Of a stretch of DNA of 56,970 bases, positions 1 through 49,300 are shown piece by piece. The stretch comes from a virus (lineage: Duplodnaviria > Caudoviricetes). Where the stretch lies: positions 1-56,970 of the IMG/VR virus record IMGVR_UViG_3300049436_000157. One strand, given 5' to 3'. A program made the translations under genes and the position numbers. Numbering within the stretch: the first letter of the stretch is position 1; each line of letters opens with the position of its first letter. Under the pieces are notes generated by a model, which had not been told where the DNA came from, searched no databases, and saw nothing but the letters and a program-made list of their open reading frames with translations.

Positions 1-798
1 TCACTCATCTCCACCAGACGCACAACCCGTCGGTGCAGGGGACGCGCCGCAAGCGGCGCTCCCCTGACCTAGTGCGTTGTGCGTCAAAATCCGCCATGCA
101 GCCGCAGCCACTCGCGGAACCTGGGCATTTCCAAGACAGCGCAGTCTGTCCAGCCGGTCGGGAACCCCATCAACCACTCTGCCCACGTTGGGTTCACTCG
201 GCCAGTCGAGGAAGTTTTCAGCCCCTCCACTTCGGCCAACCGGCTTGCCAGTGTGTCCGCCTTGCCCCTGTGTCGGCCGCCGCATTTCCTCCCAATCGAA
301 GCGGTAAGCGTCGGCCAAAATCCAAAGCCTCTTTCTTTCGTGCGGAGCGTCGGCGTTGTCTGCGCCAACAACTCCCCATCGAGCATCAAACCCCAACTCG
401 GCCAGGTCGCCGAGAACTCGGCCCAACCCCCGAGTAGTGAGCGCTGGTGAGTTTTCCACCCACACGAATCGCGGTCGTACTTCGCCAACGATCCGCGCCA
501 TTTCCCGCCATAGGCCGCTTTCAGGCCCGTCAATCCCGGCTCCTGCTCCGGCGACGGAAATGTCCGTGCAGGGGAATCCACCGCTGACAACATGCACACT
601 CCCTGCCCAGGGCTTACCGTCGAAGGTTCGCACATCGTCCCAGATCGGGAAGGCTGGAAGCAGTCCGTCGCGCTGGCGGGCGAACAGCACGCTCCGGGCG
701 TAGGCATCAACTTCAACAGCGCAGACGGTGCGCCATCCAAGGATGGTGCCTCCCAAGATGCCTCCGCCTGCTCCTGCAAAAAGTGCCAACTCATTCAT
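1..798 (-). CDS. C5-cytosine DNA methyltransferase (alpha polypeptide), cassette 1
   Basis: Motif I LFAGAGGG, IV GGFPC, VI ENS, VIII R-x-R, X LGNAQVP. ATG at 798 with AAAGG SD. The C-terminal tail is encoded by attC1. Confidence 0.92.
   Translation of the reverse strand: MNELALFAGAGGGILGGTILGWRTVCAVEVDAYARSVLFARQRDGLLPAFPIWDDVRTFDGKPWAGSVHVVSGGFPCTDISVAGAGAGIDGPESGLWREMARIVGEVRPRFVWVENSPALTTRGLGRVLGDLAELGFDARWGVVGADNADAPHERKRLWILADAYRFDWEEMRRPTQGQGGHTGKPVGRSGGAENFLDWPSEPNVGRVVDGVPDRLDRLRCLGNAQVPRVAAAAWRILTHNALGQGSAACGASPAPTGCASGGDE
20..82 (+). repeat. attC: attC site 1 (63 bp)
   Basis: R'' GCACAAC, 5-nt spacer, L'' GGT[G]CAGG ... L' CCTGACC, 6-nt spacer, R' GTTGTGC; central GCGCCGC-AA-GCGGCGC hairpin. 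Confidence 0.9.
84..794 (-). CDS. Nested alternative-frame beta polypeptide of a two-subunit C5 methyltransferase (M.EcoHK31I-like)
   Basis: 236-aa ORF entirely inside the methyltransferase gene, starting 4 nt after its ATG (ATGAATGAG). Carries motif IX-like RVNPTWAEWLMGFPTGWTD, which the main frame lacks. Confidence 0.75.
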   Translation of the reverse strand: MSWHFLQEQAEASWEAPSLDGAPSALLKLMPTPGACCSPASATDCFQPSRSGTMCEPSTVSPGQGVCMLSAVDSPARTFPSPEQEPGLTGLKAAYGGKWRGSLAKYDRDSCGWKTHQRSLLGGWAEFSATWPSWGLMLDGELLAQTTPTLRTKERGFGFWPTLTASIGRKCGGRHRGKADTLASRLAEVEGLKTSSTGRVNPTWAEWLMGFPTGWTDCAVLEMPRFREWLRLHGGF

Positions 799-819
799 CG
801 TTACCTTTCGTCCGTTGCC

Positions 820-887
820 GCACAACAATTCGTCCAACCGTACCTCGCGCAAAAAGCGCGCGAGGCCGGTTAACTCAATCGTTAGCA
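820..887 (+). repeat. attC: attC site 2 (68 bp)
   Basis: GCACAAC-AATTC-GTCCAACC...GGTTAAC-TCAATC-GTTAGCA; closely resembles the classic 59-base-element pattern AACAATTCGTTCAAGC...GCTTAACTCAAGCGTTAG. Confidence 0.92.
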
Positions 888-1651
888 GGCAAAAGCATGT
901 CGCCCTGCACCGCCGTATCGCCAGCGCCGACTTTTGGTTCAGCGAACATTTGCTCTTGAGCCTGAGCGCCCGTCACCCTCGGCACCGCGATTCCGTGGAA
1001 ATACTCATGCTCGCGCTCAATCCCGATAAATCGCCGCCCCTCCAAGTGCGCCGCCTCGCCAGTGGTTCCGCTTCCCATGAAGCAGTCCAGAACCGTGTCG
1101 CCTGCGTTCGTGGTCAGTCGTATCAGGTGCCGCATCACGTCCACCGGCTTCTCTGCCGCGTGCGCCGTCGTCTTGCTGTTACCGGCCATCCACCGGCAGC
1201 GGTAAATGTCGCTCGCGCTCCGGTTGTCTATCTTGGCGTCTGGCATCCCGGCAAAAAGCACAACCTCGTAAGTCGGGCGCAGTTGGCGCGGCCCTGCTGG
1301 TCCGATCCATTCCTTGTCCCAAATCATCAGCGAGTCCACTTGCCATTTCACCTTAGCAAACGCATAGAGCAGTGTTGGCAGGCTGCGCCAGTTTCCGAAG
1401 ACACAGGCAAACCCATCTTGCTTCAGTGCGCGCCGCGCCAGCTTCAGCCATTCGGCGTACCACCAGGCGCTATTTTCCATGTCAGCCCATCCGCCAGCTT
1501 TCGCGCTTGCGTCGCCGGTCGAGATTGCGCCAATCATGTAGGGCGGGTCGGTTATCACCGCGTCCACGCTCATCGGCGGCAACTCCGCCATCACTTCCAG
1601 GCAGTCGCCTTGCCACAGTTCAGCGTTCCCGATTGTCACTTTCTCAGCCAT
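875..1651 (-). CDS. N4/N6 DNA methyltransferase (beta class), cassette 2
   Basis: GDCLEV, catalytic DPPY N-terminal to H-x-x-EKP and DCFMGSGTT. GGAG SD. Stop codon lies within attC2. Confidence 0.93.
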   Translation of the reverse strand: MAEKVTIGNAELWQGDCLEVMAELPPMSVDAVITDPPYMIGAISTGDASAKAGGWADMENSAWWYAEWLKLARRALKQDGFACVFGNWRSLPTLLYAFAKVKWQVDSLMIWDKEWIGPAGPRQLRPTYEVVLFAGMPDAKIDNRSASDIYRCRWMAGNSKTTAHAAEKPVDVMRHLIRLTTNAGDTVLDCFMGSGTTGEAAHLEGRRFIGIEREHEYFHGIAVPRVTGAQAQEQMFAEPKVGAGDTAVQGDMLLPAND

Positions 1652-1676
1652 CGTCACTCCGTAGTTACCGTTTGCC

Positions 1677-1746
1677 TGCTAACCCATCATTCCAGGGGAC
1701 GCTGCGCGATAAAGCCGCGCATCGCCCCTGAATTCAGGCGTTGTGC
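1677..1746 (+). repeat. attC: attC site 3 (70 bp)
   Basis: TGCTAAC-CCATC-ATT[C]CAGG...CCTGAAT-TCAGGC-GTTGTGC. Confidence 0.92.
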
Positions 1747-2300
1747 GTCTTGCACTTCGCTGCCAGCTCTACCAGCCATTGCGCCAGCTCGGGCGGTGTG
1801 TGCTCTCGTTCGGCCTTTGTGATGTGCGGCCGGTAGTCGTGTCGCTTCCGGCTTTGCACCACATAGGCCGCCTCGCCCATCACGTAGGGCAGCGGCGGTA
1901 TGTCGCCCGGCTCGCACCCCACCACGTAGAACCACGTCGCCTTTTCGGCTTTGTGGCCCCACCACTTCTGCGGCGCGGCCAGTGTCCACCCGCCGTATTG
2001 GTCGCGCTCGCCCGGCATCGGCAGCTTCTGCGCCGGCCAGAGCGTCGAGCCTGCCGGGTGCTCAAGCACGCCGCCAAACTCCCGCACCAGCGCCACCGCA
2101 AGCCGCGCCAGGTTCATCTCGTCGGGTCGTGGCCGTGCGAACGTGCGCAGCCGGCCCCACGCCCTGCAAGGCGGGTGCGCCACTACCGGGCAACCTCCGG
2201 GCCAGCGCCTGGCGTCCCTCTCAGCGTCCCACACGTCCACGCCGGCCAGTGCCTTGTAGTGGCTATCTGCGCGGGCGAAAAGTACTGCAACCGTCATCAC
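1734..2300 (-). CDS. Divergent C5-methyltransferase-like protein, cassette 3
   Basis: VVAHPPC (motif IV-like), VLEHP (VI-like), Q-x-WWGH-x-x-x-KAT (VIII-like), REHTP-x-x-LA (X-like). Canonical FxGxGG is absent. Stop lies within attC3. Confidence 0.6.
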   Translation of the reverse strand: MMTVAVLFARADSHYKALAGVDVWDAERDARRWPGGCPVVAHPPCRAWGRLRTFARPRPDEMNLARLAVALVREFGGVLEHPAGSTLWPAQKLPMPGERDQYGGWTLAAPQKWWGHKAEKATWFYVVGCEPGDIPPLPYVMGEAAYVVQSRKRHDYRPHITKAEREHTPPELAQWLVELAAKCKTHNA

Positions 2301-2770
2301 TCATCTCCACCAGACGCACAACCCGTCGGTGCAGGGGACGCGCCGCAAGCGGCGCTCCCCTGACCTAGTGCGTTGGGCGTCGTCAGCGTGATCCAGCCCC
2401 GTTGCTCTGCGCTGTCGTCGATCCGTCCTTCGTGTCCGATCAGAAGCGCCGCGTCGTTCGCCATGCGCTCTGTGCATTCGTTCTCCACGGCCGGGATGTT
2501 CGGAAGCCAGAAGAACAGCGCATCCTTCAGCCGTTGGTTTTCGGCGCGCAGTTCGTGGTTTGCTTGGTCCTTCTTCGCGTACAGGTCGGCGTCCTTGTTC
2601 GCTTGGGTCAGCGCGTCCCGAAAATCTTCAACAGCGCGGTCGCCGGACTTCACGAGCGCCAGCAGTGCGCCGGCCAAGCTCTCAGCGTCTTCGCGCCGAA
2701 TGAACGATCCATCCTCGCGCTGGTGCATGCTTCCAGGGTATGCGCTGTCGTATGCCTCAATCGTTTTCAC
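2297..2770 (-). CDS. Hypothetical coiled-coil phage protein, cassette 4
   Basis: GTG at 2770 after GGAAGGG. Reads through attC4; its stop overlaps the start of the next gene. Confidence 0.75.
   Translation of the reverse strand: MKTIEAYDSAYPGSMHQREDGSFIRREDAESLAGALLALVKSGDRAVEDFRDALTQANKDADLYAKKDQANHELRAENQRLKDALFFWLPNIPAVENECTERMANDAALLIGHEGRIDDSAEQRGWITLTTPNALGQGSAACGASPAPTGCASGGDE
2316..2378 (+). repeat. attC: attC site 4 (63 bp; same sequence family as attC1 and attC7)
   Basis: GCACAAC-CCGTC-GGT[G]CAGG...CCTGACC-TAGTGC-GTTGGGC. Positions 2297-2375 are identical to 1-79. Confidence 0.9.
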
Positions 2771-2795
2771 GTCGTTTCCCTTCCGGGCGTCCGCC

Positions 2796-2865
2796 GCCCA
2801 ACTCTGCATTCGAGCGGGACTGGCCGCATAAGGCCGCGTCCATCCCCTCAATTTGACTGTTGGGC
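2796..2865 (+). repeat. attC: attC site 5 (70 bp)
   Basis: GCCCAAC-TCTGC-ATT[C]GAGC...CCTCAAT-TTGACT-GTTGGGC. Confidence 0.9.
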
Positions 2866-2869
2866 CTCA

Positions 2870-3097
2870 TTAGTGCGGCATCCTGAATTCGCATGCCGGC
2901 GGGTTTGCCGCAATGTCCGCCAGTGCGCTTTCCAGCCATCCGCGCACGAACTCGTCTCCCTCGGTGGTCCGCAGCAGGTTGTAGCCGGCCAACATCAGCG
3001 CCCCGAGTGCGTCCGACTTCTCGCGCTTCGTTGGCAATTTGTGCATCAGCGCCCCGAGCATGTCGAGCGCCAGCTTGGCAATCTGGTCTTCATTCAT
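2870..3097 (-). CDS. Small hypothetical protein (75 aa), cassette 5
   Basis: GAGGA SD and ATG; helical composition; fills the 325-bp cassette. Confidence 0.8.
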   Translation of the reverse strand: MNEDQIAKLALDMLGALMHKLPTKREKSDALGALMLAGYNLLRTTEGDEFVRGWLESALADIAANPPACEFRMPH

Positions 3098-3125
3098 TTC
3101 GCGTTCCTCTCTTGTTCCGTCTGAG

Positions 3126-3190
3126 GCCCAACAACCGCATCGAGCGGACCGGGCGAAAAGCGGCCCGGCCCCTCATGCGGAGCGTTATAC
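3126..3190 (+). repeat. attC: attC site 6 (65 bp)
   Basis: GCCCAAC-AACCG-CAT[C]GAGC...CCTCATG-CGGAGC-GTTATAC. Confidence 0.9.
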
Positions 3191-3194
3191 GTCT

Positions 3195-3941
3195 TCATGC
3201 CGCTATCACCATTTGCACGGCTTGCGGCTCCCAAAACGTCGTCGCCTGGTGGCTCTCGATCCGCTCACGCATCACCAGCGCCCTGCATTCCTTGCTTGCT
3301 GGCGTGTAGGTGCCGCGCCAGGCCGAATAAATTCCCACGTTCTGCGCGATATTGGTGCTGTCCGCGCTGGCGAACGGCAACCGCGAGAACACATCCGGGT
3401 TCAACATCCGCAGGCCATGCAACTTGCAAACCGGGTTTCCGTTCTTGTCACACACGGCGTTCATGGCTTCGGCGATCCGGTCCCACCATCGTGCATTGCC
3501 AACGGTGGCGTACTGGCCGCTGCTGCCGAGACAGACCCGCTGCCACTCCCGCGCAAGACGCCGTAGCCGATCAATAGATTCGTGCATGTGCCAGACTGGG
3601 GCACCGACCCATCGAGATACCGCATCGACCCAAGGCCATTCAGCCAGCAACTCATCATTGGCTTTCTCATCGCCATCAATCACGTCCGGGATAACTGCAA
3701 AGTCAAAAGACGGGTATCGGTGCAACTCGGCCACCCAAGCGTAATAGCGGCTCCAGTCCGTTACCGGCTCGCCGCTTTTCCACGCCGAGAAAGCGCCGTT
3801 ATCCACCGCGAAGGACTGGCAAACCTCAAGCACAAGTCCCAACTGGTCGGGGTAGCGGAAGGACACAAACGAATGCCCTCCGCTCACTGCGGCGCGAGCT
3901 GCTGTCGCTGGCGTTATCGGTAGGCCGTGGTAGTGGATCAT
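3195..3941 (-). CDS. TGT/DpdA-like (tRNA-guanine transglycosylase-fold) phage protein, cassette 6
   Basis: Start MIHYHG at 3941 (ATGA overlap). Motifs DNGAFS, IPDVI, PVWH, LHGL and SADST resemble TGT-fold DSGxF / HxxG / SxDS motifs. Confidence 0.6.
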   Translation of the reverse strand: MIHYHGLPITPATAARAAVSGGHSFVSFRYPDQLGLVLEVCQSFAVDNGAFSAWKSGEPVTDWSRYYAWVAELHRYPSFDFAVIPDVIDGDEKANDELLAEWPWVDAVSRWVGAPVWHMHESIDRLRRLAREWQRVCLGSSGQYATVGNARWWDRIAEAMNAVCDKNGNPVCKLHGLRMLNPDVFSRLPFASADSTNIAQNVGIYSAWRGTYTPASKECRALVMRERIESHQATTFWEPQAVQMVIAA

Positions 3942-4213
3942 TTGCGCTCCGTGGTCGCAGCCGTATAACCCGTCGGTGCAGGGGACGCGCCGCAAGCGGC
4001 GCTCCCCTGACCTATGGCGTTGGCAGGCAATGGCCGCCATCCCTGCGGCTCGCCATACATGCCGTGCCACGTCCACCCGCCGCCGTTGAAGTCGATCCAT
4101 GTCGCCTCGACAACCTGCTCCCACTGTCGCTTTTCCACGCCCTTTGCGTACTGTCGGTACGGGTGGTGCATCAGCATGTGGATCACCGTTCCATCCTTGG
4201 GTGCCGTTTCCAT
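3938..4213 (-). CDS. DUF551-like phage protein; C-terminus extended through attC7
   Basis: (EWRP)METAPKDG ... P-x-GWRPLP family signature. Start uncertain, because the conserved WRP lies upstream of the only ATG. Confidence 0.7.
   Translation of the reverse strand: METAPKDGTVIHMLMHHPYRQYAKGVEKRQWEQVVEATWIDFNGGGWTWHGMYGEPQGWRPLPANAIGQGSAACGASPAPTGYTAATTERK
3963..4025 (+). repeat. attC: attC site 7 (63 bp)
   Basis: GTATAAC-CCGTC-GGT[G]CAGG...CCTGACC-TATGGC-GTTGGCA. Confidence 0.9.
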
Positions 4214-4265
4214 CGGGCGCCATTCCGTATCGGCTGTTGATTGAGCCTGCTGGAGAAGGGTGTCC

Positions 4266-4607
4266 TTACGCGGTCTTGAGGTTGGCGGTGGTGATGTCGG
4301 TCGTGCTGGGGATGCTCTTCAGGTCGAGCTTGGTCTGGCGCGGATCGTCGGCGACAAGGTGGCCTTCCGGGGTGGCGAACAGCATCGCCTCCATGGGCTC
4401 TTCGGCCGGCTTGGTGAGTTTGACGTTGCCGGTGATGTGCATGGCGCCTCCTCGGGTGGCTTTCTTCACCTTGATTTCGATGACCAGCTTGCCGGCCTTC
4501 CCGCTGCCGTCGACGGCGCTGACCAGTTCGGCCATCTTGTCGCTGGCGGTGTCGATGAAGATCCCGCCGCCGATGTGGCGCAGGGTGTCGGTGATGGGTT
4601 TGCTCAT
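4266..4607 (-). CDS. Hypothetical phage early protein
   Basis: AGGAG SD, start MSKPITDTL, strong GC3 bias. Confidence 0.8.
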   Translation of the reverse strand: MSKPITDTLRHIGGGIFIDTASDKMAELVSAVDGSGKAGKLVIEIKVKKATRGGAMHITGNVKLTKPAEEPMEAMLFATPEGHLVADDPRQTKLDLKSIPSTTDITTANLKTA

Positions 4608-4641
4608 GGCTTCTTCTCCTTCTGGGTGGGTAGTGCTGCCG

Positions 4642-6369
4642 TTAGGCAGCGGCTTGGTAGTGGCTGATCTCGCCCCGTTCCATCCAGAACGCCTGGAAGG
4701 TGTCACCGGGCAGCGTCGGCAGGCCCTTCAGGGTGGCGAAGATCAGGGCCGTGTCGATCTCTCCGGCGGTGGCCAGTCCGTGGAGCCAGCGCAGGAGGGT
4801 GGACCGGTTGCCCATGTCCAGCACATCCATCCGGTCCAGGGCGATCAGGCTCAGGCCGGATACGTGGGCGATGGCCTCGGCCAGGGACGCATCGGCCCGC
4901 CAGCGGGCGGACTCGCTGCACAGGCTGTAGAGCCTGCCGCCGATGCGCACGCTCATGTCGGGATCCACGGCAACCTGTGCCCATCCGGTGGCCGAGGCGG
5001 TAGCGCGCAGCCGGTCGTTGAACGGCTTGATGGCATCTGACAGCAGTTCGCCCGGGATGCCATCCGGAGCCAAGGCGTCGGCGATCTTGAGCCAATCCTT
5101 CAGGTGCTGGTGGTTCTCGGCAGCGGCCCGGGTCTTCTTGTCGGCGGCGGTTGCCTTGCGCTGGGCATCTTCGACGAGACGGATGGCCGCCTGGTGGTTG
5201 GCCGCTTCGTGCTTGAGGTTGGCGATCGAGCTTTCCAGGTCGGCGATCATCTCGGCGGTGACCGTATCCGGCGTGGCCTCGATCTCCTGGAGGGAGGCCG
5301 CGGCGGCCTTGGCTTGCTCCAGGTCGCGCTCTCCGTTGGCCACGGAGCGCACCATGACTTCCAGCGCCCGTTCGTACTCGGGCAGGGCTTCGCGTGCCTC
5401 CGGGTCTGCCTTCTGGGCCGGCGCTTCGTATTCGACCAGAGCGCCGTCGGCGTGCCGGTGCATGAGGATGGATCCGCAGCTCGGGCAGGTGTAGGACGGA
5501 GGGGTTTCGGTGCTTCCGGAGGCCTTCGCCCGGGTGGCTTCCACCTTGGCCTGCCACTCGGCCATGTCGCCCCGGTCCTTCTCAAGCTTGGCGGTGATTC
5601 TGCCGATATTGCCGGCCTGCTCCTGGAGCCCGGCCACCTTGGCGCGACGCTCGTCCTGCTGGCGCTTCATCGCCCGGAGTTCGCCCATACGCTCCGTGTC
5701 GGCGGATATGCGCTCATTCGCGGCAGCCAGGGCCGCCTTGGTTTCGTCCAGGCCGGTGGTGTCGATCGCCGGCTTTTCCGCTTTCCAGGTCTCGGCCTTC
5801 TTTTCGCCGTAGGTCTCGCCGGTGATCTGCTTCCAGGCGCCGCGGCACTCGGTCGCCTTGGTCTTGGCATAGTCATGGGCGGCCGGGAAGCCTGAGACCA
5901 GCAGCGGGGCAACGGCTTCCGCCTTGTCGGCCGAGCAGCCGCGGTCGATCATCTTCTGCCGGATGGCTTTGGGCGCGGCAGAGGATCCGGTCAGGGCAAA
6001 GAGCATGCTGCGGCGCTCGTTGTCCTCGAGGCTGGCGAAGCGCGGCGGATCCAGCACGAATGGCAGGGCGCCGTGGATCGGGTCGCCGCTCATCGTGCGC
6101 TTGCCATCCGGCAGGGTGATGGCCACCTCGCCGGCGGTGTGCTTGATCAGGACCGATGCCGCCTTGGCGCCGTCTCGGACCAGCGCGGGGTAGTCCTTCT
6201 TCAGCTTGACGCGGACCACCTCGCCGGTCATGGCCAGGCGGATGGCCTCCTGCATGCTGGTCTTCCCCTGCTCGTTGCCGCCGGCCACCAGGACGACGGG
6301 CCGGTCGATGGCCAGTCCGATGTCGGTGATGGCCTGGAAGTTCTGGATGTTGATGGCGGTGATCTTCAC
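4642..6369 (-). CDS. Rad50/SbcC-like ABC ATPase
   Basis: IQNFQ, Walker A GGNEQGKTS, coiled coils around a CPSC zinc hook, LCSES signature, Walker B LIALD. Confidence 0.88.
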   Translation of the reverse strand: MKITAINIQNFQAITDIGLAIDRPVVLVAGGNEQGKTSMQEAIRLAMTGEVVRVKLKKDYPALVRDGAKAASVLIKHTAGEVAITLPDGKRTMSGDPIHGALPFVLDPPRFASLEDNERRSMLFALTGSSAAPKAIRQKMIDRGCSADKAEAVAPLLVSGFPAAHDYAKTKATECRGAWKQITGETYGEKKAETWKAEKPAIDTTGLDETKAALAAANERISADTERMGELRAMKRQQDERRAKVAGLQEQAGNIGRITAKLEKDRGDMAEWQAKVEATRAKASGSTETPPSYTCPSCGSILMHRHADGALVEYEAPAQKADPEAREALPEYERALEVMVRSVANGERDLEQAKAAAASLQEIEATPDTVTAEMIADLESSIANLKHEAANHQAAIRLVEDAQRKATAADKKTRAAAENHQHLKDWLKIADALAPDGIPGELLSDAIKPFNDRLRATASATGWAQVAVDPDMSVRIGGRLYSLCSESARWRADASLAEAIAHVSGLSLIALDRMDVLDMGNRSTLLRWLHGLATAGEIDTALIFATLKGLPTLPGDTFQAFWMERGEISHYQAAA

Positions 6370-6611
6370 GCTGCGGCCCTCCTGCTGATGGTCTGGTACT
6401 CGGTGCGGTCGATCATGGTGACGACGTGCCGGCCCGGTGTCGGCGGCTTCTCCTTTGCGTCGGCGTCCCGGTACTGCTGCTGCTGGGAGGCCATGAAGCG
6501 ATCAACATCCCAGGCGCGATGTTGGGTAGCGATGACGGCGCCGGTCTTCGTGTCGGTGACCTTCACGAACACGTCTCGCCCGGTCAGTTCCTGGTTGATG
6601 GAGGCGGCCAT
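6366..6611 (-). CDS. Hypothetical protein
   Basis: Tightly coupled to both neighbours in the recombination operon. Confidence 0.7.
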   Translation of the reverse strand: MAASINQELTGRDVFVKVTDTKTGAVIATQHRAWDVDRFMASQQQQYRDADAKEKPPTPGRHVVTMIDRTEYQTISRRAAA

Positions 6612-6613
6612 GG

Positions 6614-7780
6614 CTATTCCGCCTGGAACATATCGCTGCCACCGGTGCCGGCCGGCTTGGCATTGGCGATGGACACGTTGATCTGACGCTGCTGGTTCTC
6701 CGGCAGGCCGCGGGCGATGTCCCGGGCCATATCGAAGTCGCCGGACTTGACGGCCGACATGGCGTCGTCGAAGGTTGGGGCGCCAGAAGCTGCGCGTACT
6801 GAAGAAACCTCGGCGCTTACCGTCCCTACAGAAACCGTTTCCGCGTCTGCTTCGATGTGGGTGGTCACCGTTTCAACCTCCTGATGCTCCAGCGCAGGAG
6901 GTTCGGCGCCTTCCTCGAACACTTGGCTGATGGTGGCCGGGTCGGCCATGGCGGAAAAATCGACGGCCCGCTCGTCCAGCTGGCTTGCGATGGCGATAGG
7001 GTCGTTTGATGCCAGCGGAAGCCTCGAGTTGATGATCTTCTTGATCACCGTCTTGCTTGCCATGGTGTCCTCGTGCATCACCCATGGCGTGTCGGCGAGT
7101 TTCTGCGCGGCCTTGGCGCGGTCCTTGTCGCTGTCGGCTTGATCGACGGCGCGAACCAGTGAGTTGTAGGTTTCGGACTTGGAGCGCGCCTTGTAGATTT
7201 CGTCGAGCGGCAGGGTCAGGGCTACCTCGTTGCCGTTCTTCATCTTGATGAGGCAGTAGGCGCCGACCAGCGGTCCACGGTCCTTGAGGGCCTTCCTGAA
7301 CCGGACCAGGCCGGTGCTACCCTGCATGTGCTCGAATTCGTCTCGTTCGTGGATCGCCTCGGCCTCGAGGGACGCTACGTTTGGACTGCGGTAGGCCAGG
7401 GTGATGAATCCCTTGTAGCCGATCTGGAATTGGCACTCGGTTCCGATGACGCCCCATTTTCCGTTCGGCAGCTTGCCGCGCTTGTCGTAGGGGATCAGGT
7501 ACGCCTGCCCGGCCGGCGTGTTGGGCTCAAGTCCAAGGGCGGCGGCGGCCATGAACGCACCGAGCACGCTCTGCGGGTCGCACTGGGCGAGCTTCGGGGT
7601 CTTGCGGATCGCATTGACGCAGAGCGCCAGCATGCGGTCTCCGGTCATGTAGCGGCCGGCCATGGCCGTCATCTGCTTCTTGGTCTTCTCGGCGCCGAGC
7701 AATTGCAGGATATTGGCCCGAGGCTGGCTTGCTGCTGGTGTGCCCCCTTCCTTCAGGGTGGCGATGTTGGTCGCGCTCAT
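6614..7780 (-). CDS. recT: RecT-family single-strand annealing protein
   Basis: PKLAQCDPQS...LGLEP...GQAYLIPY...QFQIGYKG...MASKTVIK. Confidence 0.93.
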   Translation of the reverse strand: MSATNIATLKEGGTPAASQPRANILQLLGAEKTKKQMTAMAGRYMTGDRMLALCVNAIRKTPKLAQCDPQSVLGAFMAAAALGLEPNTPAGQAYLIPYDKRGKLPNGKWGVIGTECQFQIGYKGFITLAYRSPNVASLEAEAIHERDEFEHMQGSTGLVRFRKALKDRGPLVGAYCLIKMKNGNEVALTLPLDEIYKARSKSETYNSLVRAVDQADSDKDRAKAAQKLADTPWVMHEDTMASKTVIKKIINSRLPLASNDPIAIASQLDERAVDFSAMADPATISQVFEEGAEPPALEHQEVETVTTHIEADAETVSVGTVSAEVSSVRAASGAPTFDDAMSAVKSGDFDMARDIARGLPENQQRQINVSIANAKPAGTGGSDMFQAE

Positions 7781-7801
7781 GGTCTGGTGGTCTCCAGTGA
7801 A

Positions 7802-8617
7802 TTATTCGTGATAGATACAGGTGTCGAAAACAGGGCAAAACTTCTCCCCGCACATGAAGCTGCGCGGGTTCGGCGGAAACAGTCCGGTGCGGAACATCTC
7901 GGCGGCGAACTGGATCAGGCCCGGCATGGTGTCGGTGCCGACCATGATCCGTTTCGGGTTGATCACCGAGGCGGTGGCCACTTCCAGAGTGCCCTTGGTC
8001 TTGAGGCCGATGATCTCCGCCGGCTCGGTGATGGCCTGGCCGGTGGTGTGCTCGTGCAGAAGCTCATAGGTGCCGAGCTGGGCGCCGTGGCCATCGATCT
8101 TGGCCGCGCCTTTCTGCACCGCCGTGGCGCCGCTTTTCAGGTCGGCGATGCCCAATCCGCTGGTCCCCTGCTTGAGGCGTGAGCGGTCCATCGTGCCGGT
8201 CAGGCGGACGATGACGCCGTTGCCGCAATCAATGTCCATGGGCTTTGTTTCAAGCTCAACCCCGGCGAAGGTGTAGCGCGGGCTGATCTCGGCGCAATAC
8301 TTTGAGTGCAGCGTCAGGCCAATCTTCTCGGCCTCCGGCATGGTCAGATCGTCCAGGTTCATGTCGACCTCGGCGGCCGATTCCTTCAGGGAGTCGACCA
8401 CGGCGCCGGCGGCGTCCGTTGGGGTCAGGCCCTGGCCGTTCATGCGGCTGGTGTCGTAGATGGCCGTGGCCCTGTGGATGGCCGTGCCAAGGGCCATGCG
8501 CAGGCCGATGGGGTTGCGCTTCTTGTCGATGTGGATGGCGTGCCAGCGCATGGCGCAGTCGAATAGCGCGCCCCAGCTGGAGGCGCGGACCGTCATCGAC
8601 GGGGTGATTTCGTTCAT
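7802..8617 (-). CDS. PD-(D/E)XK exonuclease (RecB/Cas4-like)
   Basis: GTAIH, LTGTMD, IADLKSG, QLGTY; one N-terminal plus three C-terminal Cys; adjacent to recT. Confidence 0.85.
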   Translation of the reverse strand: MNEITPSMTVRASSWGALFDCAMRWHAIHIDKKRNPIGLRMALGTAIHRATAIYDTSRMNGQGLTPTDAAGAVVDSLKESAAEVDMNLDDLTMPEAEKIGLTLHSKYCAEISPRYTFAGVELETKPMDIDCGNGVIVRLTGTMDRSRLKQGTSGLGIADLKSGATAVQKGAAKIDGHGAQLGTYELLHEHTTGQAITEPAEIIGLKTKGTLEVATASVINPKRIMVGTDTMPGLIQFAAEMFRTGLFPPNPRSFMCGEKFCPVFDTCIYHE

Positions 8618-8620
8618 TGT

Positions 8621-8827
8621 TCAGTCCTCGTGGTGGTCGTGGTTGACGCCGTGGTTCTTGCAGGCCTTGCAGCGCCTGGCATTACGGTTTTCGTCCTGGG
8701 TCAGGGTCCGGTCGAAGGCGACGCAGTGCGCGGCGCCGAAGATCCGCGCCAGGTGCCCGCAGTGCGCCGGGCAGATTCCGTCGGCCAGGCCCGGGGAGTA
8801 GTTCAGGTGCTCGGCGGTGGTGGTCAT
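8621..8827 (-). CDS. Small Cys-rich protein
   Basis: CPAHC..C..CKAC; ATGA overlap with the upstream gene. Confidence 0.6.
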   Translation of the reverse strand: MTTTAEHLNYSPGLADGICPAHCGHLARIFGAAHCVAFDRTLTQDENRNARRCKACKNHGVNHDHHED

Positions 8828-9108
8828 CGGGTGGCCTCCCATCTCGTCGGGAGCCCGTCAATGCGGCGGACCACTTCGCGCTCAGCCATCCGCCGGCAGA
8901 CATTGGTGATCGTCGACGGGGACATGTCGCCCAGGTCAAAGTAGATGTCGGTGATCGAGGCCTGGCCTATCCGCTTGATGGCCATCAGCACGCGGTCATC
9001 CTTGGCCCGGTCCGACTGGCGGCGCGACTGGATCCGGCGCTGCTTAGCTGTCACTGGAGAAACGAGCGGCTTGCAGCCTCCGATCGCCAGATTCCACATG
9101 GATGTCAT
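8824..9108 (-). CDS. Winged-HTH-like protein
   Basis: VLMAIKRIGQASITDI...SPSTITNVCRRM...V-x-R; ATGA overlaps. Confidence 0.65.
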   Translation of the reverse strand: MTSMWNLAIGGCKPLVSPVTAKQRRIQSRRQSDRAKDDRVLMAIKRIGQASITDIYFDLGDMSPSTITNVCRRMAEREVVRRIDGLPTRWEATR

Positions 9109-11593: not shown

Positions 11594-11635
11594 AGTATGC
11601 GCAAAAGTTTGCCGCTTCGTCAAGCAAAAGTTTGC
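11594..11635 (-). promoter_or_regulatory. PL promoter with two operators
   Basis: -35 TTGACG (11623-11618), 18-bp spacer, -10 CATACT (11599-11594). GCAAAAGTTTGC at 11601-11612 and 11624-11635. Confidence 0.85.
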
Positions 11636-12935: not shown

Positions 12936-12979
12936 TTGACGAGCGCAAAAGTTTGCGTCTAAGATGCGCAAAACTTTGA
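12936..12979 (+). promoter_or_regulatory. PR promoter with operators
   Basis: -35 TTGACG (12936-12941), 18-bp spacer, -10 TAAGAT (12960-12965). GCAAAAGTTTGC at 12945-12956 and variant GCAAAACTTTGA at 12968-12979. Confidence 0.85.
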
Positions 12980-13953: not shown

Positions 13954-14004
13954 TGGCCAGCAGCAATGATCGGTGCCCGCCGGGCCTGGACGGAGGATGC
14001 GGCC

Positions 14005-15066
14005 ATTAACTACTACGAACATCACATCAGAGACTACGACACGGCCACCGCCCACCTGACGTGGGAGCAGGATCTGGCCTACCGGCGCCTGATCGCGTGG
14101 TACTACCGCAAGGAGGCACCGATCCCGGGCGACATCAAGGAAGCCTGCCGCCAGGTACGGGCCGTCACAAAGCCCCAGCGCGATGCCGTGGCCACCGTCC
14201 TGGCAGAGTTCTTCGACCTGGCGGACGACGGCTGGCACAACGGAACTTGCGACGAGGTGATCGCAGCATTTCACGCCGGAGAGCCCGAGCGGGAGGCGAA
14301 GAAGCGGAACGAGGACACGCGCCTAGCCAAGCATAGAGCCGAGCGGTCAGAGCTTTTCGGGATCATCAACGCCGCAGGAATCCACCTGCCTTGGAATACC
14401 AAGATGGAGGAGTTGCGGACCGTTGCAGACCGGGTTCGGTACGGGAGACCTGAAACACCTGCAACGGCACCTGAAACAAAAACTGCAACGCCTGCAACGC
14501 AACCTGCAACGGCACCTGCAACGCCTGCAACGGCTACCCAGACACCAATACCCAATACCCAATACCCAGAAGGTAAACCTAACTCCGAACAAACGACGTC
14601 AACGACGATACCCGTGTCAACCGCGCAACCTCCCCCGTCGTCGTCGCCGGGATTCGATTCGAGAGCCGAGTCCGTCTGCGCGGTCTTGCGAAAGCTCGAG
14701 GAGGACAGAGGCAAGCGCTGCACGATCCACGCCAAGCACCCGAAGGTGCTGCGATGGGTAGAGGCCGGGATGACGGACGCAGACCTGCGCCAGGCCTACG
14801 ACCTGGCTGTGGCCCAGCGGCATGAGGACGGCGACCAGACCCCCATCAATGCCGGATTCCTCGACCTGTTCGTCGCCAAGGTCATGAACCCCAAGGACTC
14901 GACGAGCGCGGTTACCGCAGTGGCCAAGGCCTGGCACCAGTCCGCCTCCGGGGTCGCTGCCAAGGCGGCGGAGTTGGGGCTGCCTCCGTACCACCCCGAC
15001 AAGTACCCGGGCGGTCAGCCTGAGTTCAAGACTCGTGTGCTTGCAGCGGCGGGGGTTGCACCGTGA
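14005..15066 (+). CDS. YdaU/DUF1376-family replication initiator (start at ATT 14005 or ATG 13966)
   Basis: NYYEHHIRDYDTATAHLTWEQDLAYRRLIAWYY signature; internal iterons; position after cro and the cII-like gene. Confidence 0.85.
   Translation: MNYYEHHIRDYDTATAHLTWEQDLAYRRLIAWYYRKEAPIPGDIKEACRQVRAVTKPQRDAVATVLAEFFDLADDGWHNGTCDEVIAAFHAGEPEREAKKRNEDTRLAKHRAERSELFGIINAAGIHLPWNTKMEELRTVADRVRYGRPETPATAPETKTATPATQPATAPATPATATQTPIPNTQYPEGKPNSEQTTSTTIPVSTAQPPPSSSPGFDSRAESVCAVLRKLEEDRGKRCTIHAKHPKVLRWVEAGMTDADLRQAYDLAVAQRHEDGDQTPINAGFLDLFVAKVMNPKDSTSAVTAVAKAWHQSASGVAAKAAELGLPPYHPDKYPGGQPEFKTRVLAAAGVAP
14449..14565 (+). repeat. Iteron-like repeats, probable replication origin
   Basis: About 8 copies of (C)CTG(C/A)AAC followed by tandem CCAATAC repeats, inside the initiator gene. 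Confidence 0.75.
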
Positions 15067-46392: not shown

Positions 46393-49300
46393 ATGGCTCG
46401 ATACGAGATCACTTCTCCCGACGGGCGCCGGTTCGAGGTAACGGCGCCCGACGACGCCGGCCAGGACGATGTTCTGGCCTACGCCCAATCGAATTTCGGC
46501 AGCAAAGATCAGGACGGTGGTGGGCGCTCCGTTCTCGATGTCGTTTCGGCCGGTATCCACGGAATCGTTGACGATGTGCGCGGCGGAATATCCAGGATCG
46601 ACGCCAGGCGGCGCGAGGAATCGATTGCTCGCAGCAATGCGGCCAATCAAGAAATGCTGGCCACCAGCAGAGCATCCGGAACCTCTGCTGAACTCGAGCG
46701 TCAGGCGTTGGCCAAAGACGCGGCAGCCAGGTACCAAAATGATCCGGTGAAGCGCGGAATCGACTTCGGCCGTGATCTTGCATTGAGCAGTGCGCAAGGG
46801 GTAGTCGGACTAGGCGAGGCGGCCGTCGGTATCGGCGATCTGGCCACCGGCTGGACCGGATATACGCCGGGCCAGGCGCTGAAGGATACCGTTGGGTACG
46901 ATCCAGAGCGCACCAAGTCTTCGATCATTGGCGACCTGAAGAGCGATTCCGGCAAGGCCCGGGATGCAATCTACCAGGGCACCAAGGGATTCACCGAGAC
47001 ACTGCTGACCCTGGGCGCCGATCCGGCAATGCTGGCCGACAAGATCACCGAGTCGCTGGCGGGAACGGTTGGGGCTGGCGCCATCGGCGGCAAGGTGGTG
47101 CAGATGGCGCTGCCCAGGGTCACAGCTGCCGCGTCGGCGGCCGGGTTGTCTGGGGCCGAAGCCGAGGCCTTTATTGCCGACCGCCTGGCCAAGATCGCCA
47201 TTGGTGCCTCTGCTGGTGCGGAAGGGGCGCAGCAGGCTGGCAACCTCGCGGAGACAGCGCGCCAAGGGGGGAAGTCTTGGCGTGACTACGCGCTGCCGGC
47301 CATTGCCTCCGGGATTGGCACGGGCGCCATTGCCGCCGGTTCTGGCGCCTTGGCCAAGAAGATCGGTATCGGCGACATCGAATCGGACATTGCCCTGCGC
47401 GGGCAGCGGCCGGGCCTCAAGACTGACCATGGGTTCGCCGTGAATCGTGCCGCCATCGAGGGCATCAAAGAGGGTTCCCTGGAGGAGATGCCGCAGTCCG
47501 TCCAGGAATCGGCCTGGGAGAACGTCGCCATGGGGCGGCCGTGGGACGAGGGGCTGGGCAAGGCTGCGGCCTCTGGCCTGGCAACTGGCGCAGGAATGGG
47601 TGGCGGTCACGCCGCGGTCAGCCGGCCATCGGAGTCAGTACCATCCGAGCCGCTGGCAAATACCGCAGGCGGGGGTAATGCAATCCATGCGGGTGATGTG
47701 CTCGGCTCGCCGGTGGTTGAGGCTTCGCCGGGAGCGGGTAGTGCGCCGGCGGTGGCCGCCGTGCCGACGGAATCCGACAAGGCGCTCTACACGCCCAAGA
47801 GCCTGACGGCCCTCGACAGGGTTCAGGAAATCGACATGCGCCTGGCGGCGCCCGATCTTGCCCAGGGCGAGGCCCAGTCGCTGAGCGCGGAACGGGACGG
47901 AATCACGGCGTCCTGGCCCACGGCAACGCCAGGCGTGCCCACGTCCTTTTCCACGGAGACCGGAGCCCGCATCAACGGCCAGTACGCCCTGATGGAAGCC
48001 GGAGACCTGACCACTTCCCACGACGAGAACCTGCGGCCGGTCGGCACGTACCCGGTGGAGCTTCAGCCCCGCGAGCGGGAACGCCATGCCTCGGAGATGC
48101 AGGTCCAGCAGATCGTCGGCAAACTGGATCCGGCCCGGCTGGGCGAATCGGCAGACGCCGCCACCGGCGCGCCGATCGTTGGTGCCGACGGGCTGGTGGA
48201 ATCCGGAAACGCCCGGACCATTGCCCTGAAGCGCGTCTACCAGGCCAACGGCCAGAAGGCGCTCGACTACCGGCAGTTCCTGAAGGACAACGCCGGGCGC
48301 TTCGGTATCACACCAGAATCCGTCGATGCCCTGCAGAAGCCTGTGCTGGTGCGGGTGCGCAGCACCCCGGTGAATCGGGCCGAGTTCGCGCGCCAGGCCA
48401 ACGCCTCGACCGTGGCGCGCATGAGCCCGTCCGAGCAGGCGAGGTCCGACGCCGCGGCGATCGACAGCCTGGACGACCTGAACCCGGACGACGCGGGAGA
48501 TTTCACGTCCGGAAGCTCGCGGCCGTTTATCCGCCGCTTCCTGGCCAAGTTGCCAGGCACCGAGCAGGCCGGCATGATCGACGCCGGCGGGCAACTCTCC
48601 CAGGCCGGCTATGCGCGGATCCGCAATGCGGTGCTGGCCAAGGCCTACGGCGACTCGCCAGTGCTGCTGCGCATGGTGGAAAGCCTCGACAACAACCTGC
48701 GCAACGTCACGGCCGGCCTGATGCGCGTGGCTCCCCAGGTGGCCAAGGCCCGCGAGGCCATCGCCGATGGCGCCCTGTTCGATGCCGACATCACCCAGGA
48801 TCTGATGGCCGCCGTCGAGGAGCTGGCGACCTTGCGCGACAAGGGCACCTCGGTGGCCGACTACCTGGCGCAGTCCAGCATGTTCGGCGACAGCCTGTCG
48901 CCGGAGGGCCGCGAGCTTCTGATGTTCCTCGCGGACAATATCCGCAGTCCCCGGCGCATCGCCGAATTCATCCAAGCATACCTTGAAGCCCTGACGGCCG
49001 CCGGCAACCCGGCCCAGGGCTCCGTGTTCGGCGAGCAGCAGGCGCCGGCCAAGGCCGATCTCATGGCTGCCGCTGCAAGGAGTCAAGGCGATGCCAAGCA
49101 ACCAGGATCCACTGATGCCGGTCAAGTTGCCGGGAACCAAGGCGCTATTGGACAAGGTGAAGGCCAGCCCGCGAATCAGGCAGGCGATCCGCGCGGCGCT
49201 CAAGGCGATGCGGGCGCCAGCGAATGGGTAGCCTTCCCGCCTGAGAGCGGCACGCTCGGCATCCCCCGGGCGGACATGCCACAGATCAAGGGCGAGCACC

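Follow-up and report, generated by a model that had tools for sequence, protein, structure and literature searches.

The left 4 kb of the provirus is an attC array without an integrase (CALIN), which confirms the observation made in a first-pass annotation of this DNA. We consider it likely, with a probability of roughly 0.7, that this temperate phage bears at its left end a cassette array of integron type that lacks an integrase and whose polarity is inverted relative to bacterial integron cassettes, and that the genes crossing a recombination site borrow residues and a stop codon from the next cassette. The window analyzed here is the whole 56,970-bp record of the provirus (IMG/VR record IMGVR_UViG_3300049436_000157, Caudoviricetes).

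An attC array without an integrase

Sites were located with a home-made structural scan (AAC, 5 nt, an 8-nt L'' with one extra base, a loop, a 7-nt L', 6 nt and GTT, with at most one L-box mismatch), and genes were called with a home-made codon log-odds score trained on the window genes, which was used in place of a longest-ORF heuristic. Over both strands of the window (114 kb of strand), the scan returned eight matches, of which seven lie in the array, all on the + strand, while the eighth is 138 nt long and intragenic. The array sites and the genes between them are as follows.

1..798, - strand: C5 cytosine DNA methylase gene; in-frame crossing at AAC 76-78, then through attC1 to a TGA stop at 3..1, the first bases of the window
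20..82, + strand: attC1, 63-bp family, found by the scan; preceded on the left by 19 nt that match the leader 2297-2315 exactly
820..887, + strand: attC2, found by the scan; boxes and spacers like those of the R100 aadA1 attC; antisense frame 0 reads AAC GAT TGA
875..1657, - strand: N6/N4 DNA methylase gene (PF01555, 6.4e-39), ending ...PAND*; stop inside attC2, 6 nt past AAC
1677..1746, + strand: attC3, found by the scan; antisense frame 0 reads AAC GCC TGA
1734..2300, - strand: phrog_12600-family gene, ending ...THNA*; start at GTG 2300 or ATG 2297, overlapping the upstream stop
2297..2315, - strand: leader of the phrog_12600 cassette, with GGAG, a TGA stop in frame 0 (2299..2297) and the start that follows; it codes for the last residues of the upstream protein, ASGGDE
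2297..2770, - strand: gene for a 157-aa protein with no assigned function; the likely start is GTG 2770, and the gene lacks its own stop ahead of the crossover
2316..2378, + strand: attC4, 63-bp family, the site named in the first-pass annotation; antisense translation NALGQGSAACGASPAPTGC
2796..2865, + strand: attC5, found by the scan; the upstream gene stops 11 nt before AAC
2870..3097, - strand: gene of 75 aa that terminates on its own (TAA TGA) just ahead of attC5
3126..3190, + strand: attC6, found by the scan; the upstream gene stops 11 nt before AAC
3195..3941, - strand: phrog_887 gene (annotated queuine tRNA-ribosyltransferase, DpdA-like); ATG 3941 overlaps the upstream stop (ATGA)
3938..4213, - strand: gene for a 91-aa cassette protein; body conserved to ...GWRPLPAN, tail made of attC7 and leader
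3963..4025, + strand: attC7, 63-bp family; antisense translation NAIGQGSAACGASPAPTGY

All seven array sites fit the canonical attC layout (R'' ...AAC, R' GTT... and an imperfect L''/L' hairpin) and show the attC asymmetry on the + strand, with an extrahelical base on the AAC arm of the top strand (G in attC1, attC4 and attC7; C in sites 2, 3, 5 and 6) and spacers of 5 nt versus 6 nt. With DNA parameters, the bottom strand is predicted to fold more stably than the top strand at six of the seven sites, attC7 being the exception. The grouping of attC1, attC4 and attC7 into one antisense stop-free family held, as each is 63 bp long and their 38-nt core is identical. With seven sites in one orientation inside 4 kb and no intI in the record, the array belongs among CALINs, which are defined by at least two co-oriented attC sites without a neighbouring intI. 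Profile searches (TIGR02249, PF00589) gave no integrase match in the 56,970-bp record, within which the array, unlike a complete integron, has no intI, attI and Pc beside it. No run of U follows the attC hairpins in the window sequence. The array sits at the far left of the provirus record, and the window begins inside it.

In their R''/L''/L'/R' boxes, 5- and 6-nt spacers and extra base on the top AAC arm, the sites are like those of integron cassettes such as aadA1 (In2, R100), and they share with them a G|TT crossover, matching unit ends and an attC that overlaps the end of the ORF. A distant search of plasmids with attC2 found no integron site because the query was too short. At all six junctions in the window, the R' of one site is complementary to the R'' of the next (unit ends match, TTRRRY versus own R''). 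Across the wider set of related arrays, such complementarity was found at 50/71 adjacent pairs versus 10% for shuffled partners and 8/71 within one site. Judged by sequence, matched unit ends of this kind are the pattern that a crossover at G|TT would produce, and the features above support the view that the repeats are genuine attC-type sites that are read antisense. Of 151 genomes sampled from the likely host family (Rhodocyclaceae), 80 have IntI, and the cassettes would be moved by host IntI in trans.

Cassettes of inverted polarity

A textbook integron cassette consists of a promoterless ORF followed by its attC. None of the seven window genes has this arrangement, with the ORF on the attC top strand and the attC after it; all seven attC top strands are on the + strand and all seven genes on the - strand (gene strand supported by Pfam and PHROG matches), so the coding strand is the recombinogenic bottom strand. 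Each unit on the mRNA thus comprises an attC, a leader of about 20 nt with a Shine-Dalgarno sequence, and an ORF, and the attC precedes the gene, unlike in integron cassettes. The attC orientation was cross-checked against the attC 3' of aadA1 in R100, against L014, an intI-linked integron that has sense ORFs and attC sites of this family, and by applying to the window sites the criterion given in PMC5027507, according to which the extrahelical bases of the top strand are on its AAC arm. In 21 regions adjoining intI, 73 scan matches were in the expected orientation and 10 were not.

Related loci were gathered via one attC core and one gene family, and the locus set is therefore a biased sample. 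Among 104 clustered sites in these phage and metagenome arrays, the flanking gene was antisense at 79, sense at 4 and undecided at 21, whereas the right flank of host integron sites was sense in 24 cases, antisense in 6 and undecided in 33. A strict scan of Tetrasphaera phage TJE1, for which a CALIN has been published, gave no convincing attC, every match being intragenic, and its sites may not fit the pattern. A near-identity search of window positions 1-8000 against phage records returned a single irrelevant 304-bp match. Integrase-less attC clusters have been described in both temperate and virulent phages (Qi et al. 2023, PMC9892861), with DNA methyltransferases among the cassette genes, as here. 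That paper, however, describes a typical cassette structure, and the passages of it consulted here mention neither antisense ORFs nor translated attC sites nor a frame relation. Our literature searches for antisense or translated attC sites in phages found nothing on point, which does not in itself prove absence.

Reading frame at the crossover and neighbour-dependent C-termini

Five of the seven window genes read the crossover AAC as Asn, which agrees with the first-pass claim for every gene reaching an attC, and the other two stop 11 nt before AAC. Two of the five crossing genes stop at a TGA two codons on, and three read through the whole of a 63-bp attC to a stop at or adjoining the next start codon. 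The two prompt stops, which had been attributed to attC2 and attC3, are the TGA codons 6 nt after AAC in the PAND* and THNA* genes. The three minus-strand ORFs that run through a 63-bp attC end in ...THNALGQGSAACGASPAPTGCASGGDE (1..852), ...TPNALGQGSAACGASPAPTGCASGGDE (2297..2851) and ...PANAIGQGSAACGASPAPTGYTAATTERK (3938..4213). That these tails are added to three unrelated proteins also proved right, the proteins being a C5 DNA methylase and two without a shared family in Pfam or PHROG. In the C5 methylase, the PF00145 and phrog_363 matches span only residues 1-238 of 265, so family homology stops where the tail starts.

We propose that each unit would end at AA|C, the crossover point, which falls among the final codons of its ORF. 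A gene would either have a stop of its own, immediately ahead of or within the R' box, or cross with AAC as Asn, and a crossing gene would take its remaining residues and its stop from the next cassette. The borrowed stop would be a TGA two codons on, or one reached through the whole hairpin and located at the next start or a few bases short of it. The phage ORF crosses the R' box, in contrast to the canonical cassette ORF, which ends at R''. The proposal that the downstream neighbour sets the tail was borne out among relatives of the 91-aa protein, seven of which share ...GWRP[LM]P[AS]N (or ...TPN) with it and are wholly different thereafter, so that one body common up to ...PAN is followed by eight different tails. 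These relatives came from a protein search, the related-locus search with the same protein having found none. The tail search suggested by the first-pass annotation located the window tail on 36 further database proteins belonging to 32 unrelated body families. These comparisons support the idea that the C-terminal tail is determined by the downstream neighbour. Because every copy has an identical 38-nt core, the tail offers no sequence variation on which selection could be tested. Fused gene cassettes (PMC4670013) are similar in that a cassette ORF runs past its own boundary into the neighbour, but the attC is lost in those described there and they are rare, whereas the window attC sites are intact and read-through is systematic. 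Another idea, that the first insertion struck the 91-aa gene as a resident gene of the phage, was dropped because the homologues of this gene end in ...PAN followed by different attC-type tails.

The fixed frame rule that had been proposed at the crossover fared less evenly. The 5/5 in frame 0 (AAC read as Asn) has P = 0.004 under a 1/3 null, but P = 0.10-0.50 under a composition null, since an in-ORF AAC in GC-rich DNA sits in frame 0 in 63-87% of cases (AAC, 240/380; YYAAC, 84/97); the window count is thus not significant alone. A stop-free antisense attC frame is also common (frame 0 in 18/73 distinct cores, frame 1 in 37/71 and frame 2 in 18/72), and the open frame of the 63-bp family by itself is not beyond chance. 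The high composition null and the common open frames mean that the window alone fails to establish the rule, and it is the wider data that do. In the wider tally of arrays that had been called for, taken without the cluster filter, frame 0 was used in 60/70 crossing ORFs (49/59 by family). The four non-frame-0 cases with a good hairpin were inspected. One, L117, is a genuine exception in which the ORF crosses between two codons; another comes from a site placed in the wrong register, and the remaining two are spurious intragenic sites. The other six were set aside for a weak hairpin (dG per nt above -0.2) or a length over 110, with the window match, L028 and L077 examined individually. Under the 87% null, finding frame 0 in 49 or more of 50 families has P = 0.008, and under the 63% null P = 3e-9. 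The frame-0 rule is near-universal but not absolute. In the related arrays, roughly half of the genes (44 of 79) have a stop of their own before the crossover, and 35 ORFs cross with the cluster filter applied, 33 of them in frame 0. Of the 33 copies in the 63-bp family, 24 have frame 0 open for 36 codons or more on the upstream side, 18 of these with a coding score; coding scores in frames 1 and 2 are absent from all 33. The interpretation given in the first-pass annotation is, overall, partly supported.

Frame 0 reaches a stop by 45 nt past the attC end in 71/73 cores, as compared with 46/71 and 61/72 for the other frames. Units that make no use of frame 0 still have a stop in it ahead of the next gene in 42/43 cases (25/42 and 33/43 for the other frames), while frame 0 does so in 53/63 host integron controls. 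Safety alone is insufficient to explain the rule, because frame 1 of the 63-bp family would stop harmlessly after 7 nt and is never used.

Stop-start overlap (ATGA, TGATG) is a coupling arrangement in phage and bacterial operons. The window has the geometry for termination-reinitiation, with minus-strand overlaps of GTGA at 2300-2297 and ATGA at 3941-3938, as the first-pass annotation had reported; for the gene starting near 2297, an ATG one codon downstream of the GTG is equally possible and gives a TGATG overlap (2300-2295). Among 63-bp family leaders with a callable start, 14/22 overlap (ATGA or similar) and seven more have the stop 4-12 nt upstream. As in operon coupling, the spacing between the upstream stop and the next start ranges from an overlap to at most 12 nt, although here the overlap is made by two mobile units meeting at a recombination site. 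Ribosomes reading through the hairpin may unwind it, and would terminate and then re-initiate at the next gene. The downstream genes carry their own Shine-Dalgarno sequence (GGAG), which predicted mRNA folds leave outside the attC hairpin; translational coupling would be consistent with the stop-start geometry but is not required. Translation into or across an attC hairpin was linked to downstream cassette expression in 2009 work cited in PMC11511950, which concerned short ORFs, a top-strand transcript and canonical cassettes, unlike the full-length bottom-strand genes here.

Alternative explanations and implications

It is very improbable that the repeats are intergenic hairpins that resemble attC without being integrase substrates, such as REP-like elements, attenuators or homology patches of mosaicism. 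The window has no integrase, the evidence for recombination here is sequence-based rather than direct, and contigs from other samples break within the repeats, as they would for any repeat. Yet the complete attC architecture with correct asymmetry at 7/7 sites, the match of attC2 boxes and spacers to the aadA1 attC, the occurrence of the same attC family beside intI in a bacterial integron, the excess of matched unit ends over shuffled partners (50/71 versus 10%) and the missing U run all argue for attC sites. We likewise give little credence to the array being a decayed host chromosomal integron beside the prophage that was swept in by the provirus boundary call. Its position at the extreme left of the record, with the window starting inside it, and a GC skew and GC3 unlike the phage core would fit such an origin, but the cassette genes belong to phage families and are co-oriented and contiguous with RecT, exonuclease and SbcC-like early genes. 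Moreover, like antisense arrays occur inside other viral contigs of 13-59 kb, the L028 array adjoins a 72%-identical phrog_204 gene while having different cassettes, and host integrons carry sense ORFs.

A more serious alternative, though still an unlikely one, is that frame 0 is a by-product, with R' boxes that originated in, or were taken from, the 3' ends of GC-rich genes inheriting the Asn frame, which then spread by cassette ancestry while the tails were tolerated. The composition counts favour it (240/380 and 84/97), as do the window P value of 0.1-0.5, the invariant 38-nt core, whose tail lacks the variation needed for a selection test, and internal frame-0 stops that are equally common in host integron attCs (47/63) and phage attCs (55/73). 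Against it, 49 of 50 independent families in frame 0 would still be improbable at the 87% null (P = 0.008), and unused frame 0 terminates in 42/43 units versus 25/42 and 33/43 in the other frames, compared with 53/63 in host integrons. Frame 0 could instead be a selected convention that keeps shuffled arrays translatable. Somewhat short of an even chance, in our estimate, is the fuller form of this selected convention, in which phages of integron-bearing hosts keep their own pool of inverted, attC-first cassettes with the crossover in the fixed phase AA|C (Asn) and with exchangeable stops and tails; each attC-leader unit would be kept able to end frame-0 readers at the next start, and the convention would keep any order translatable and perhaps coupled.

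If this is true, phages draw on a cassette pool distinct from that of their hosts, the recombination site is part of the proteome of many unrelated proteins, and the C-termini of proteins change with cassette order. An array of DNA-modification genes in a temperate phage would then offer a system for asking whether hairpin translation tunes the next gene and whether bottom-strand transcription affects recombination. Furthermore, attC finders and annotation pipelines that assume sense ORFs would mis-describe inverted arrays.

Parts of the array were also encountered in sequence data from other samples. Contigs from two RNA libraries match parts of it, including 738-890 across attC2, from which transcription is not demonstrable, and stretches of the array that lack such matches carry no meaning. 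Read contigs contain joints from 936 to 1626 and from 936 to 1681 in the array, and the attC3 core is present at high copy number in bioreactor runs.

attC-type sites and the polarity of cassette genes

A structural attC scan (AAC, 5 nt, an 8-nt L'' with one extra base, loop, 7-nt L', 6 nt, GTT; at most one L-box mismatch) of both strands of the window returned eight matches. Seven lie within 20-4025, every one on the plus strand (attC1-attC7 at 20-82, 820-887, 1677-1746, 2316-2378, 2796-2865, 3126-3190 and 3963-4025), and the eighth, 138 nt long, falls within a gene. As the first-pass annotation had proposed, attC1, attC4 and attC7 form one 63-bp family; the scan showed that they have an identical 38-nt core. 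In gene orientation, the aadA1 attC of plasmid R100 consists of R'', a 5-nt spacer, L'' with the extra base, L', a 6-nt spacer and R'; the plus strand of attC2 has identical boxes and nearly identical spacers. A section of Nivina et al. (PMC5027507) places the extrahelical bases on the AAC arm of the attC top strand, which is where the plus strand carries them at 7/7 window sites. We further compared the window with a Contendobacter contig (L014), in which three scan matches diverge from intI: the closest belongs to the window attC family, the scan-called top strand points away from intI, and the ORFs there are sense. Across 21 intI-adjacent host-family regions, 73 matches were oriented as expected and 10 opposite. 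The bottom strand folds more stably than the top at 6/7 window sites, and the classical cassette signature is seen, with complementarity between an R' and the following R'' at 6/6 window junctions (50/71 in a wider set, versus 10% for shuffled partners and 8/71 within a single site). Given the likeness to aadA1, the strand criterion, the intI-linked controls, the folding and the matched unit ends, the window sites are attC-type and bound real cassettes in a CALIN (attC sites clustered together with no integrase).

The second cassette of L014 (1567-2394, minus strand) codes for a 275-aa protein. Its STFK...-type motif presumably recalls class D beta-lactamases. In four bioreactor runs, the attC3 core (window 1681-1731) reached a contig depth of 115-269, with flanks at 2-10 and many different flanking sequences; in those communities, numerous cassettes have an attC of this type.

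The attC bottom strand carries all seven cassette genes of the window. We trained a codon log-odds score on genes of the window and used it to call genes at 104 clustered sites, drawn from the window, contigs with the attC core and 80 viral loci encoding a phrog_12600 homologue. Of the 104 flanking genes, 79 ran antisense to the attC and 4 sense, the remaining 21 being undecided; in host integron arrays the right flank, scored likewise, was sense in 24 cases, antisense in 6 and undecided in 33. Host integron ORFs are thus mostly sense, whereas those of the window are antisense. On the mRNA, a phage cassette therefore comprises the attC, a leader of ~20 nt with a Shine-Dalgarno sequence, and the ORF, ending at the crossover between AA and C. 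Phage CALINs, integrase-less attC clusters that include methylases as in the window, are already described in PMC9892861; attC sites overlapping stop codons, and small attC ORFs, are established as well. Among the papers covered on phage, antisense or translated attC sites, we found no systematic antisense ORF polarity, no ORFs crossing the crossover in one frame, and no stop codons or tails supplied by the neighbouring cassette.

Reading through the crossover and the origin of C-terminal tails

The minus-strand C-termini in the window match exactly the ORF ends of the first-pass annotation. Three proteins (the C5 methylase, the 157-aa and the 91-aa protein) read through a 63-bp site and acquire the NA(L/I)GQGSAACGASPAPTG tail, while the N6/N4 methylase and phrog_12600 genes find the predicted immediate stop at attC2 and attC3, reading AAC and then TGA two codons on. 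The proposed stop-start overlaps at 2297-2300 and 3938-3941 are likewise present; the remaining two cassette genes stop 11 nt short of AAC. Of the 79 antisense genes, 44 end at a stop of their own; for 21 of these it is the TAA within an R' box that ends TAAC, and most others terminate 8 or 11 nt upstream of AAC. The other 35 cross, 33 in frame 0 (the crossover AAC read antisense as Asn) and 2 in frame 1, and both frame-1 cases look like false sites within long genes. Lifting the cluster filter brought the number of unique crossing ORFs to 70, with frame 0 used by 60, frame 2 by 8 and frame 1 by 2; they represent 59 families, and frame 0 accounts for 49 of these. A good hairpin was present in 4 of the 10 cases outside frame 0; inspection of these four revealed one genuine exception, one mis-registered site whose gene actually ends at the TAA of its own R' box, and two false sites within genes. 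The exception (5020-5077, reverse strand of the related locus L117) has an 86-codon ORF whose crossover sits on the codon boundary between GAA and CGC and which terminates 11 nt later at a TGA inside the L' box. Another locus, L071 (2026-2144, reverse strand), holds a frame-0 reader that runs for 450 nt without a stop and enters the next gene; this could reflect a natural fusion, or the site could be false.

The 63-bp family comprised 33 unique copies, of which 24 have at least 36 open upstream codons in frame 0, with a positive coding score in 18/24; frames 1 and 2 gave no coding score in any of the 33. In four copies (L112, L122, L128 and L136) the crossover AAC is changed to ATC or ATT with the ORF still open (…HIAIGQGS…), and the database proteins P0042 and P0048 likewise carry a changed triplet. 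The ATC/ATT copies look like dead, fixed junctions.

Because the crossover lies between AA and C on the gene strand, everything past AA belongs to the next cassette. Shared bodies with differing tails, among homologues of both the 91-aa protein and phrog_12600, bear out the earlier proposal that the downstream neighbour decides the C-terminal tail. A database search with the 91-aa protein found a body common to eleven homologues, seven of which continue through ...GWRP[LM]P[AS]N or ...TPN into seven different tails; the remaining four are without the N and have other endings. By eye, a C-x-x-x-N ending is recognisable in 21/80 phrog_12600 homologues, after which comes either a stop at once or one of various tails; the others have ordinary ends. 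The suggested search for the tail peptide on unrelated proteins recovered the 63-bp-site tail on 36 further database proteins from 32 body families, with 28 different leader-encoded endings after it. This tail is rich in Gly, Ala, Ser and Pro, methylase family models end where it starts, and we take it to be a tolerated extension. With its DNA identical in every copy, the tail offers no variation from which selection on the peptide could be read.

Strength of the proposed frame convention and stop-start geometry

Frame 0 is less surprising than a null of 1/3 implies. In 14 phage genes of the window, in-ORF AAC falls in frame 0 in 240/380 cases, and YYAAC in 84/97. The fixed frame rule of the first-pass annotation therefore stands in part: it describes most crossing ORFs and families (60/70 and 49/59), but the window's own 5/5 is within composition chance (P = 0.1-0.5 under the composition nulls) and L117 is an exception. 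At the family level, at least 49/50 in frame 0 corresponds to P = 3e-9 (63% null) to 0.008 (87% null). The stops encoded by attC and leader are a line of evidence independent of upstream genes. By 45 nt past the attC, an antisense stop occurs at 71/73 distinct sites in frame 0, 46/71 in frame 1 and 61/72 in frame 2; where frame 0 is idle, the upstream gene having its own stop, the counts are 42/43, versus 25/42 and 33/43. Host integron sites had no comparable frame difference (stops in 53, 47 and 45 of 63 for frames 0, 1 and 2). Stops inside the attC are equally frequent in the phage (55/73) and host integron (47/63) sets, and the frame-0 excess therefore sits in the leaders. This gives moderate support, short of proof, to frame-0 termination as a maintained convention.

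In the 63-bp family, the frame-0 stop lies 63-93 nt after AAC in 32/32 copies with a defined stop. A start could be called in 22 of its 27 distinct leaders; the stop overlaps that start in 14 (ATGA, GTGA or TTGA) and precedes it by 4-12 nt in seven; these overlaps are partly dependent, six preceding the same gene. This layout is the geometry of termination and re-initiation. The ~100-130-nt mRNA segments holding each attC have predicted folds of -44 to -57 kcal/mol, and on these predictions frame-0 ribosomes must melt a very stable hairpin. Translational coupling across the attC is plausible but unproven, since the downstream genes carry their own GGAG, which the predicted folds leave unburied. 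For canonical cassettes, translation has been connected with the influence of attC on the following cassette (PMC11511950, which also cites Jacquier 2009).

Phage record, likely host and proposed cassette exchange

Beyond the cassettes, the record, an IMG/VR provirus, encodes:

Window, minus strand: early genes for a RecT-like protein, an exonuclease and an SbcC-like ATPase
Window, plus strand: terminase, portal protein and internal virion protein
46393-56970, plus strand: giant ORF of at least 3525 aa, open-ended past the window end

The PHROG matches of the giant ORF are large virion-associated proteins without known function, and its residues 1382-1627 are primase-like. Searches of the whole 56,970-bp window with the integron-integrase model and with the Phage_integrase family gave no match. 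Bioreactor metagenome runs holding window DNA, and contigs with the same attC family, point to a host among Rhodocyclaceae-like wastewater-reactor bacteria; the genome contigs with this family come from Rhodocyclaceae MAGs, Azonexus and Candidatus Contendobacter. An integron integrase scored above the curated cut-off in 80/151 sampled genomes of the family of Azonexus (G005-G153), several of which have 2-4 copies.

Host IntI, common in the likely host family, could act in trans on the phage cassettes and would swap units between co-infecting or resident phages. Such exchange is consistent with unit ends that match, with the differing cassettes beside the conserved phrog_204 gene at the related locus L028, and with the shuffled gene orders of other contigs. 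As for the inverted polarity, we speculate that it might make the recombinogenic strand the non-template strand, which transcription would expose.

GC skew flips sign at ~4000 (window 1-4000 versus 4001-9000), both parts being minus-strand coded, and GC3 is 0.716 in cassette genes versus 0.808 in phage core genes, which suggests that the cassettes differ in origin from the core. Tandem CTGCAACG-type short repeats with periods of 12, 21 and 33 nt, possibly iterons, occupy window 14450-14548 within a primosomal/replication-protein-like gene (13966-15063). A GCGCAAAAGTTTGC-containing repeat occurs in two copies 1.3 kb apart (11599-11634 and 12943-12978), close to where leftward genes give way to rightward ones; the copies look like operators.
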